A stretch of 64,000 nucleotides of DNA from Meyerozyma guilliermondii (Eukaryota), in assembly GCA_051546255.1 (NCBI GenBank), contig CP128815.1, positions 124,001-188,000 on the forward strand, in the 5' to 3' direction. Below, in pieces: positions 6,834 to 11,381 of this stretch. The stretch's first letter is position 1; every line of letters starts with the position of its first letter. The notes below the pieces were generated by a model that was not told the origin of the DNA, did not search any database, and was given only the letters and a program-made list of their open reading frames with translations. Position numbers and translations under genes: made by a program.

Positions 6834-7616
6834 ATGCCCTATTACGCCATTGCTAACGGCAGAAAAACCGGGGTTGTACAAACTTGGAAAGAATGTGAGT
6901 CCCAAGTTGCAGGTTACAAAAATGCAAGGTACAAAAAGTTCAAAACTGAGGCAGAAGCAGCAGCATTCGTTCTGGATTATGGGTCTTCAGCCAAGCAGCC
7001 AGCTTCTGTAGACTACAGTCACCGTCAAAAACCAGCTGTTAATAACAATTCTCGAATCACAAAGCCCAAGACTACTCCTCGTCATGTTGATCCAACAACC
7101 AACTCATCCAACGTCCAACATATCTACGTGGATGGAGCTGCTCGAGGAAACGGAAAGGTACGGAGCCCCAAATCAGGATACGGTGTATTTTATGGAGAAG
7201 GAGATGAGCGAAATGCGGCTGTACCATTATCTAAAGTTGACTCTGATCGAACCGGAACTAACCAAAGAGCAGAGTTGCACGCATTAAACCACGCTCTTGA
7301 CGATATATCCAAAGAATTGAACCAAGGAAATACACCGAAGGAGTACATCATCCATTCAGACTCGCAGTACACCATTAAGGCAGTTGGTGAATGGGCTAAG
7401 AAATGGAAAACCAATGGCTGGCGTACGGCTTCTGGGACTCCCGTGAGTAATAAAGACCTTATCGAAAAGGCAGTTGATAAGGTTGCTACTATCAACAAGG
7501 CATATGTGGCCAGAAAAATGGCCCCAATAATAATAGCCTATGTCCCTGGACATGCTGGCAACTACGGAAACGAAATGGCAGACCAGTTAGCTAACAAAGG
7601 AGCTGACTTGGACTGA
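6834..7616 (+). CDS. RNH1: Ribonuclease H1, copy 1 (hybrid-binding domain + RNase H domain)
   Basis: YYAIANGRKTGVVQTWKEC...YKKF hybrid-binding domain. Catalytic motifs IYVDG, TNQRAEL, SDS, GH and NEMAD are all intact. Confidence 0.92.
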   Translation: MPYYAIANGRKTGVVQTWKECESQVAGYKNARYKKFKTEAEAAAFVLDYGSSAKQPASVDYSHRQKPAVNNNSRITKPKTTPRHVDPTTNSSNVQHIYVDGAARGNGKVRSPKSGYGVFYGEGDERNAAVPLSKVDSDRTGTNQRAELHALNHALDDISKELNQGNTPKEYIIHSDSQYTIKAVGEWAKKWKTNGWRTASGTPVSNKDLIEKAVDKVATINKAYVARKMAPIIIAYVPGHAGNYGNEMADQLANKGADLD

Positions 7617-8500: not shown

Positions 8501-9232
8501 ATGCCCTACTATGCAATTTGTGACGGCAGAAAGATAGGCGTTGCCCTGAGCTGGGAAGAATGTAAATCTTATGTTTCTGGATACAGCAATGCTTGGTACA
8601 GGAAATTCGACACCAAGTCTGAAGCGAGGGATTGTTTTACCTCCAATATGTACCTGTCAGATTCAGAAGACGATTACCTGTCTTATGGCAAAAATTTTGA
8701 CAGAAATTTTGAAATGGAACATATTTACATTGACGGAGCTTGTAAGAGAAACGGAATGGCTCTGCAACGTAAAACAGGATACGGCGTCTTTTATGGAAAT
8801 GGTGATGTGCGTAATGCAGCTGTTTCCTCGTCAAATGCTGATAAACTATCAGGAACCAACCAAAGATCAGAATTGCGCGCATTGTATCACGCTATCATAA
8901 ATATTGTCAATGACATAAATGATGACGGTACCACTAAGGCGTACACCATTCATACAGACTCGAAGTATGTCATCAGGGCTTCTGGGATCTGGGCCAAGAA
9001 ATGGAAATCTAATGGCTGGCGTACAACCACTGGGCGTGTTGTGGCTAATCAAGATCTCATAAAGAGGATAGTCTTTTATTTGAAAGAAATCAACGAGAGA
9101 CTTGCAAATATTGGCTTGCCTCCAGTAAAAATTGAGTACGTTCCTGGCCATGCTGGCAACCACGGAAACGAAATGGCAGATAAATTGGCTAACAAGGCAG
9201 CTGACGAGGATGGAGAACCATACTGGCTTTGA
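8501..9232 (+). CDS. RNH1: Ribonuclease H1, copy 2
   Basis: ATG at 8501 (MPYYAICDGRK); IYIDG, TNQRSEL, TDS, PGHAG and NEMADKLA. Confidence 0.9.
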   Translation: MPYYAICDGRKIGVALSWEECKSYVSGYSNAWYRKFDTKSEARDCFTSNMYLSDSEDDYLSYGKNFDRNFEMEHIYIDGACKRNGMALQRKTGYGVFYGNGDVRNAAVSSSNADKLSGTNQRSELRALYHAIINIVNDINDDGTTKAYTIHTDSKYVIRASGIWAKKWKSNGWRTTTGRVVANQDLIKRIVFYLKEINERLANIGLPPVKIEYVPGHAGNHGNEMADKLANKAADEDGEPYWL

Positions 9233-10365: not shown

Positions 10366-10586
10366 GTTAAGGGACTGAGATTTTGTTAGCAGAGCTTTGT
10401 GATGAGGATTGTCAATGGATTCGATGGTGATCGAGCTCATCACGAAATTAGTTTTTACCTTATGAAATGAATGACCTATATATTGCTCGAGGATCAATGG
10501 TTTATACTTCTATTCTATTTCTCATTTTAAATATAATTCAGACTCGATTCTCACCATATAAAATTTCGCAGCTCTAGAAATGCAAA

Positions 10587-11381
10587 ATGCCTTATTACGC
10601 TGTCGCTCATGGTCGTCAAACTGGGGTGGTTAAAAGCTGGAAAGAATGCCAATTGAGAGTACAAGGTTACCGTGGAGCGATCTATGAAACTTTTCGTCAC
10701 GCAACCGACGCCTATAATTTCGTTGATGAAAATAATCCTTCGAAGAGAAGTGAACATTGTACCAAAATCTTTATTGACGGCGCATTTCAAGGAGACCAGT
10801 GCGGATATGGAGTCTGGTACGGCGATGATGATCCCAGAAATGCTGCCGTACCACTTTTCCAGGCAAAAGAAGAACTTCCATTGAACAATCAACGAGCAGA
10901 ATTAAGGGCCATGATTCATGTTTTTAGAAATATACAGCAAGAGATCGAACTGAACAACGGTATCCCTTTAAAAGAGTATGTGATTCTTACTGATAGTCAG
11001 GCTACCATCAAGGCACTCACCATTTGGTCTGTTAAATGGAAAAAGAATGGATGGAAGACAACGAAAGGAGAGATCATTGCAAATAAAGATCTAATTAGTG
11101 AAGCTGTTGAATTATTAGAGAGCTTGGAGCAATACTACCGAACCAGTGACTTGAGATTAGCAATCGAACATGTTTATGGGCATGCTGGTGTACATGGGAA
11201 TGAAGAAGCTGATAAATTAGCAACTTTCGCAGCAAGCTTGACTACCATCATACTGGAAAATAAGGATACCAGCAAACTGAAAATTCCCTACGAATTCCCT
11301 TCAACATGGGTTCTGGTCACCGGCTTTACTATAGCTCTTGTTCTGCTAGGGTTCTATGTCTTGAGGAAAAGAAGGTCCTAA
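10587..11381 (+). CDS. RNH1: Ribonuclease H1, copy 4, with C-terminal transmembrane tail
   Basis: MPYYAVAHGRQTGVV hybrid-binding domain; IFIDG, NNQRAEL, TDS, GHAG and NEEAD; ends with a ~19-aa hydrophobic segment plus RKRRS. Confidence 0.88.
   Translation: MPYYAVAHGRQTGVVKSWKECQLRVQGYRGAIYETFRHATDAYNFVDENNPSKRSEHCTKIFIDGAFQGDQCGYGVWYGDDDPRNAAVPLFQAKEELPLNNQRAELRAMIHVFRNIQQEIELNNGIPLKEYVILTDSQATIKALTIWSVKWKKNGWKTTKGEIIANKDLISEAVELLESLEQYYRTSDLRLAIEHVYGHAGVHGNEEADKLATFAASLTTIILENKDTSKLKIPYEFPSTWVLVTGFTIALVLLGFYVLRKRRS

Follow-up and report, generated by a model that had tools for sequence, protein, structure and literature searches.

A predicted tail-anchored RNase H1 paralogue with a remodelled hybrid-binding domain in a tandem RNase H1 array of Meyerozyma guilliermondii

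Known forms of RNase H1 are soluble and act in the nucleus or, when directed by an N-terminal presequence, in the mitochondrial matrix. A 64,000-nucleotide stretch of the Meyerozyma guilliermondii genome (GenBank assembly GCA_051546255.1, contig CP128815.1, positions 124,001 to 188,000 of the forward strand), referred to as the window, raises the question of whether a member of this family has been tethered to a membrane. Four RNase H1 genes are arranged in tandem on the plus strand of the window, and a sequence-only reading of this DNA had proposed that the last of them, copy 4, encodes a catalytically intact RNase H carrying a Fis1-type tail anchor, that is, a hydrophobic terminal helix followed by a short basic tail. 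The features on which the present analysis rests are collected in Table 1, with positions counted from the first nucleotide of the window.

Table 1. Positions of the RNase H1 genes in the window and of the features of copy 4
Feature	Position	Strand	Details
Copy 1: canonical RNase H1, 260 aa, without tail	6834..7616	+	groups with canonical copies of related genomes
Copy 2: divergent RNase H1, 243 aa, without tail	8501..9232	+	orthologue is P0081
Copy 3: RNase H1 pseudogene	9846..about 10365	+	tblastn of copy 1 gives matches in three frames
Copy 4: tail-anchored RNase H1 paralogue (predicted)	10587..11381	+	264 aa and stop, ORF in table 12
Hybrid-binding domain (HBD) of copy 4	10590..10721	+	residues 2-45; W18 kept, Glu34-Thr35 in place of the canonical Lys-Lys
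RNase H catalytic domain of copy 4	10764..11234	+	residues 60-216; D64, E105, D136, H199, D209
Polar spacer between enzyme and anchor, 24 aa	11235..11306	+	residues 217-240
Predicted transmembrane segment WVSVTGFTIALVSLGFYVL, 19 aa	11307..11363	+	residues 241-259; from hydropathy
Basic C-terminal end RKRRS (net +4) and stop codon	11364..11381	+	5 residues past the segment
Four CTG (Ser) codons in the copy 4 tail	11253-11255, 11277-11279, 11313-11315, 11343-11345	+	codons 223, 231, 243, 253

A C-terminal extension is found in copy 4 but not in its neighbours. Copy 1 stops 7 residues past the ADxLA motif and copy 2 stops 13 residues past it, while copy 3 is a pseudogene with a degenerate HBD-like start and without a counterpart to residues ~152-228 of copy 1, the part that includes the third catalytic Asp and the basic protrusion; therefore, the observation of the sequence-only reading that copy 4 alone continues for some 50 residues is correct. 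In the table 12 open reading frame of copy 4, the motif EADKLA occupies residues 207-212 and is followed by 52 more residues ending PSTWVSVTGFTIALVSLGFYVL-RKRRS-stop, as had been described, and only the start assigned to the extension (11236) needs a shift, as it is the second base of codon 217, whose first base is 11235. An intron altering the C-terminus was considered and rejected, since usable intron signals are absent from copy 4: its one GTATGT lies within conserved coding sequence, and TACTAAC does not occur. The frame is bounded on its 5′ side by an in-frame stop that lies 5 codons before the start, and a convergent gene for a major facilitator superfamily (MFS) transporter ends 21 bases beyond the gene.

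Some further observations concern the starts of these genes and their surroundings. An out-of-frame ATG at 10580-10582 on the plus strand, 7 nt upstream of the copy 4 start, opens a short overlapping frame. In copy 1, a stop lies in frame 24 codons before the start, and there is no N-terminal extension; its canonical orthologues P0007 and P0009 carry ~37-65 residues ahead of MPYYAV, which could be mitochondrial presequences. At the edge of the window, positions 1-432 on the plus strand (5′ end open) hold the end of a repetitive Ser/Asp/Ala-rich open reading frame with a short hydrophobic stretch, resembling a GPI-anchored cell-wall protein.

How CTG is decoded matters for the tail, because the last two of its four CTG codons fall within the hydrophobic segment. 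In the CTG clade of yeasts, the decoding of CUG is ambiguous between Ser and Leu. CTG accounts for only 56 of the 10,403 codons (0.54%) in 15 genes of the window, and the six CTG codons of the window PRP8 gene align to M, Q, G, Q, S, and T of human PRP8, with none of the six on a human Leu, a count made by hand from the alignment output. Among named sequences, the aconitase encoded in the window is closest to those of CTG-clade yeasts ([Candida] subhashii at 90% identity, Scheffersomyces and Lodderomyces at 87-88%), and the named RNase H1 relatives are CTG-clade yeasts as well; no annotated relative close to the window was found. The rarity of the codon, the PRP8 alignment, and the nearest named relatives all agree with the reading of CTG as Ser adopted earlier for this locus. 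A search for tRNA genes within the window returned none. At the position of the first CTG codon in the hydrophobic segment (W-V-S), P0004, an orthologue of copy 4, carries an ordinary Ser. The last 48 codons of copy 4 contain four CTG codons against the window rate of 0.54% (post hoc binomial P 1.4e-4), and in the stored standard-code translations of two other orthologues, Leu appears at all four tail CTG sites of P0002 and at the three alignable sites of P0003. Because of these aligned Leu residues, the tail CTG codons may be conserved between copy 4, P0002, and P0003.

The enzyme ahead of the tail is a eukaryotic type RNase H1. Both of its domains were detected above the Pfam gathering scores, PF00075 (RNase_H) at residues 60-216 with an E value of 1.6e-20 (74.1 bits, cut-off 25.8) and PF01693 (Cauli_VI, the HBD) at residues 2-45 with an E value of 4e-15 (56.2 bits, cut-off 21). 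The catalytic residues D64, E105, D136, H199, and D209 were invariant in alignments of 15 and 63 sequences and in all five members of the lineage to which copy 4 belongs, and the string WKKNGWKT of the basic protrusion is the same in copy 4 and human RNase H1. The AlphaFold2 (AF2) model built from a 63-row alignment had a mean pLDDT of 87.3, with the HBD and the catalytic domain confidently modelled and means of 90-98 over 10-residue blocks of the catalytic domain. Human RNase H1 was the best match of copy 4 in the PDB by sequence and also by fold, the top Foldseek match of the model being 6vrd_A with an E value of 3.8e-13 and a target TM-score of 0.82. The Protein Atlas match of P0001, which is copy 4 itself as stored in the table 11 reading, gave only generic RNase H clusters, all below 0.9. 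Two features set the tail-anchored lineage apart within this conserved framework, namely the lack of six residues from the hairpin after the first catalytic Asp and a linker of only ~13 residues between the HBD and the catalytic domain. Judged by its residues and modelled fold, the RNase H catalytic core of copy 4 is intact.

The tail itself has the hydropathy of a membrane helix. The 19-residue segment at residues 241-259 is the global hydropathy maximum of the copy 4 protein, with a Kyte-Doolittle mean of 1.79 when CTG is read as Ser and 2.28 when it is read as Leu. The value shifts with how the segment is delimited, and the 23-aa uncharged run averages 1.47 with CTG as Ser. For comparison, the 12 helices of the neighbouring MFS transporter range from 1.55 to 2.68, and among 10,343 19-mers from 15 soluble-type proteins encoded in the same window, only one reached at least 1.79. 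Thus, a transmembrane segment followed by a strongly basic end is predicted from hydropathy even under the less hydrophobic Ser reading, in keeping with the proposal of a hydrophobic terminal helix and a short basic tail. Together with the similar end present in all four orthologues, the count among the soluble-type windows indicates that the hydrophobic end of copy 4 is more than a chance stretch. The structural models were less definite on this part of the protein: with the 63-row alignment, AF2 left residues 238-259 unstructured at pLDDT below 50 and gave no confident helix, and with a shallow 5-row alignment of the lineage only, it placed a helix at residues 246-263 with block pLDDT means of 36-47.

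Other targeting signals were also considered. Neither a signal peptide nor a second membrane segment was found, the maximum of any 19-mer in the first 60 residues being -0.31 and the HBD lying right at the protein start. A GPI-anchor signal was rejected because an N-terminal signal peptide is absent and the end is basic. Targeting to the mitochondrial matrix or inner membrane is unlikely, because the protein has no presequence and the in-frame stop upstream of the start leaves only 5 codons.

The origin of the tail was addressed through its conservation. Four orthologues, P0002, P0003, P0004, and P0005, share 84, 81, 60, and 49% identity with copy 4, respectively; the gene model of P0002 is truncated at its N-terminus. 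Each of the four terminates in a hydrophobic 19-mer, with Kyte-Doolittle means of 1.81-2.40 as stored, that is, with CTG read as Leu, and these values are upper bounds if the aligned Leu residues are CTG codons. In all five members, an uncharged run of 21-25 aa at the very C-terminus is followed by a basic cluster, and the net charge after the segment is +4 in copy 4, P0002, P0003, and P0005, and +3 in P0004. The sequence between and within these elements drifts considerably, as the segments of the orthologues are identical to that of copy 4 at only 6/19 to 11/19 positions and the distance from EADxLA to the segment ranges from 24 to 62 aa across the lineage. Since spacer length and segment residues drift while hydropathy and charge stay, it appears to be the property of the tail, a C-terminal hydrophobic run with a basic end, that is kept, and not its sequence. 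A recent stop loss as the origin of the tail was ruled out, because the hydrophobic run and basic end are retained down to 49% identity as the sequence drifts. Tail anchors in general evolve in this manner.

Among the relatives examined, the tail is specific to this lineage. A search for RNase H with a C-terminal transmembrane segment in other yeasts had been suggested from the sequence; of 273 RNase H1 relatives, 7 have a hydrophobic 18-mer in the last 45 residues. Five of the seven are the lineage, including copy 4 itself (P0001), so that four orthologous clusters carry such a tail and none elsewhere among the 273 does. Two further candidates were discarded, P0034 being cut short within the catalytic domain and P0118 having a hydrophobic end without a basic end. 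When a profile of the five members was compared with 1.84 billion representatives, only the two clusters of the lineage spanned positions 1-264 (499.6 and 457.9 bits), and the next match, at 272 bits, was a fusion of two tail-less RNase H1 copies. The gene is confined to five 90%-identity clusters and has a small taxonomic range. P0078 and P0079 (490 and 491 aa) were rejected as distant members, as each model holds two RNase H1 copies and no tail. These two proteins, one of which is from Spathaspora sp. JA1, carry two full HBD and RNase H units in one frame and represent either genuine double enzymes or tandem genes merged into one model.

The conservation pattern also bears on whether the hydrophobic end is an anchor at all. 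In principle, it could instead mediate contacts with other proteins, form an amphipathic or aggregation-prone tail, or act as a degron, lowering the level of a soluble paralogue. The segment contains 2 Gly, 2 Thr, and 2 Ser, AF2 gives it no confident helix, and insertion into a membrane is not provable from hydropathy alone, all of which fit such a role. However, a terminal uncharged run of constant character with a basic cluster behind it, retained in five of five members while the sequence drifts, is what would be expected of a tail anchor and not of a specific interface, and comparable hydropathy in a single one of the 10,343 soluble-type windows argues in the same direction. We therefore regard a function other than anchoring as very improbable.

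The history of the lineage was reconstructed in a maximum-likelihood tree of 43 chosen rows, comprising 40 of the 273 relatives and the three intact copies of the window, with non-yeast, short, and fused rows left out. The five tail-anchored members form one clade (support 100/100) on a stem of 1.16 changes per site, and this clade nests, with support of 94/82, among canonical copies from the same set of genomes (W_copy1, P0006, P0007, P0009, P0080, W_copy2, and P0081). Paths within the clade are 0.12-0.97, comparable to those among the canonical copies. On this tree, the tail-anchored lineage went through a burst of change that was followed by constraint. The tandem arrangement appears to be common to related genomes, as is suggested by the equal contig sizes listed for an orthologue and a canonical copy in two cases (20,327 for both P0005 and P0007, and 18,844 for both P0004 and P0009).

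These branch lengths help to weigh the idea that copy 4, in the manner of copy 3, is a duplicate in decay or silent, and owes its tail to accidental read-through. A pseudogene within the array, the long stem of the copy 4 lineage, and the out-of-frame ATG ahead of its start could all be taken as signs of decay. Against this, the frame has stayed open in five lineages down to 49% identity, the catalytic residues are all retained, the HBD is 85% identical within the lineage, and the paths inside the clade resemble those of canonical copies, which makes decay exceedingly unlikely.

Although the catalytic core is preserved, the description of copy 4 as an intact RNase H has to be limited to that core, because the Lys-Lys pair of the HBD became Glu-Thr; the core, with its invariant DEDD/His residues, models onto the human enzyme, and the protein as a whole has a remodelled HBD. 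The HBD of copy 4 can be aligned with the structures of the human and yeast domains (3bsu and 1qhk), and it carries Y-E-T at the site of human F-K-K. All five members of the lineage have [E/D][T/S] at the Lys-Lys site, in the form of E-T, D-T, or E-S, and all keep the Trp. At the same site in 260 HBD domains of 221 other proteins, at least one basic residue is present in 252 and two in 183, and any acidic residue occurs in only 4. Of the canonical binding surface made up of the Trp and Lys-Lys, the lineage has thus retained the Trp and lost the lysines. In PMC6846478, the binding surface of the human HBD is given as Trp43, Lys59, and Lys60, and the K59A/K60A double mutation is reported there to lower hybrid affinity about 10-fold. 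By analogy with the human domain, loss of Lys-Lys might weaken hybrid binding by the HBD of copy 4. Despite this loss, no part of the protein is better conserved within the lineage than the HBD, which has a mean pairwise identity of 85% compared to 64% for the catalytic domain and 30% for the spacer, the least conserved part. For this reason the altered HBD is evidently in use in the lineage, to judge from its conservation, possibly with a different ligand.

Which membrane the tail would enter was considered in the light of known tail-anchored (TA) proteins. Fis1 is anchored in the mitochondrial outer membrane and in peroxisomes by a moderately hydrophobic, basic-ended tail. Copy 4 resembles proteins of this type in its single C-terminal segment, of borderline-moderate hydrophobicity, in the very short, strongly basic stretch that follows, and in the absence of a signal peptide; it differs from them in carrying a nuclease as its cargo, it is unrelated to them in sequence, and its localisation is a prediction. 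According to PMC5450235, the transmembrane domains of yeast ER TA proteins have GRAVY values above 1.75, and a high tail charge, which can prevail over hydrophobicity, diverts TA proteins to peroxisomes or mitochondria. Copy 4 straddles this boundary, with 1.79 when the best 19-mer is taken and 1.47 over the 23-aa run, and its orthologues lie at 1.81-2.40 as stored. Because borderline-moderate hydrophobicity, with 2 Ser and 2 Gly in the segment, is combined with a conserved +3/+4 end, the mitochondrial outer membrane or peroxisome, for which we put the chances at somewhat less than even, is slightly favoured over the ER or nuclear envelope, which is a serious contender. The proposed Fis1-type signature of moderate hydrophobicity and a basic end fits the rules given in PMC5450235, but the values are borderline, and the ER or nuclear envelope is still a candidate.

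A distinct alternative is that tail-anchored copy 4 is inserted by the GET pathway into the ER and hence also reaches the nuclear envelope. With a small extramembrane domain, it could then move to the inner nuclear membrane and remove R-loops at peripheral chromatin. RNase H1 has nuclear or mitochondrial substrates as far as they are known, and this counts for the alternative. So does the hydropathy: the GRAVY of 1.79 under the Ser reading is just over the yeast ER value of 1.75 given in PMC5450235, and the stored values of the orthologues all exceed it, although these are upper bounds if the aligned Leu residues are CTG codons. The basic end speaks against it, as a net charge of +3 or +4 is found in five of five members and such ends draw TA proteins off the ER, again according to PMC5450235. 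Weighing both sides, we consider GET-dependent delivery to the ER somewhat unlikely.

Taken together, the sequence-level checks support the overall interpretation of the sequence-only reading, with the tail present in all four orthologues, membrane-helix hydropathy, and invariant catalytic residues. Copy 4 is probably a tail-anchored RNase H1 paralogue facing the cytosol or nucleoplasm that was born by tandem duplication and kept by selection. On this account, the canonical RNH1 gene would have been duplicated in tandem in an ancestor of a small group of CTG-clade yeasts and one duplicate would have changed fast, gaining the C-terminal tail anchor, having its linker cut to ~13 residues, and exchanging Lys-Lys on the HBD surface for Glu/Asp-Thr/Ser. 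Lacking both signal peptide and presequence, the protein would be synthesised in the cytosol, and its single C-terminal helix would be inserted post-translationally, leaving the ~27-kDa module of HBD and RNase H on the cytosolic or nucleoplasmic face. Held at that membrane, we infer, copy 4 would cut the RNA strand of RNA:DNA hybrids nearby. Retrotransposon intermediates, cytoplasmic plasmids, and R-loops at the nuclear periphery may be named as possible substrates, as a matter of speculation.

Compared with known enzymes, copy 4 resembles eukaryotic RNase H1, such as human RNASEH1 and yeast Rnh1, in combining an HBD with a type-1 RNase H domain, in its DEDD/His residues and WKKNGWKT string, and in its fold matches (6vrd/2qk9). 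Unlike these enzymes, it has no presequence, a predicted C-terminal hydrophobic anchor, a linker of ~13 aa, a hairpin six residues shorter after the first Asp, and an HBD without Lys-Lys. In plants, duplicates of RNase H1 are sent to different organelles by N-terminal transit peptides and act inside them. These paralogues and copy 4 are alike in being duplicates for other compartments, whereas copy 4 would sit outside a membrane. The closest analogue in the proposed mode of action is TREX1, described in PMC11904002 as a mammalian tail-anchored DNase of the ER that clears cytosolic nucleic acids; like it, copy 4 is a nuclease with a tail anchor, here a predicted one, at an organelle membrane. 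TREX1 has another fold, acts on DNA and not on the RNA of hybrids, and is an animal protein, and no homology is implied.

Extended further, this analogy would make copy 4 a yeast counterpart of TREX1, a surface-tethered RNase H1 that destroys cytosolic hybrids, with an HBD switched to a specific ligand or partner and an anchor tuned by CTG ambiguity. Its targets would be the reverse-transcription intermediates of LTR retrotransposons or the transcripts of cytoplasmic linear plasmids, and Ser/Leu ambiguity at the four tail CTG codons could tune the hydrophobicity of the anchor and hence its destination. As a complete scenario, we consider this unlikely.

A search of full texts readable without subscription turned up no account of an RNase H1 with a tail anchor or other membrane anchor, which agrees with the remark in the sequence-only reading that none was known. 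Neither the enzyme family nor the principle of anchoring is new; their combination, together with a recharged HBD, appears to be undescribed. RNase H1 is widely used as a tool for removing or mapping R-loops. The lineage of copy 4 offers a natural experiment on the HBD, as the strongest constraint in the lineage falls on this domain despite the loss of the residues thought to hold the hybrid. If the tail-anchored reading of copy 4 is true, it would mean that RNA:DNA hybrids outside the nucleus and the mitochondrial matrix matter enough in some yeasts to have a dedicated enzyme, or, alternatively, that hybrids at a membrane-apposed site, for example the nuclear periphery, need local removal.
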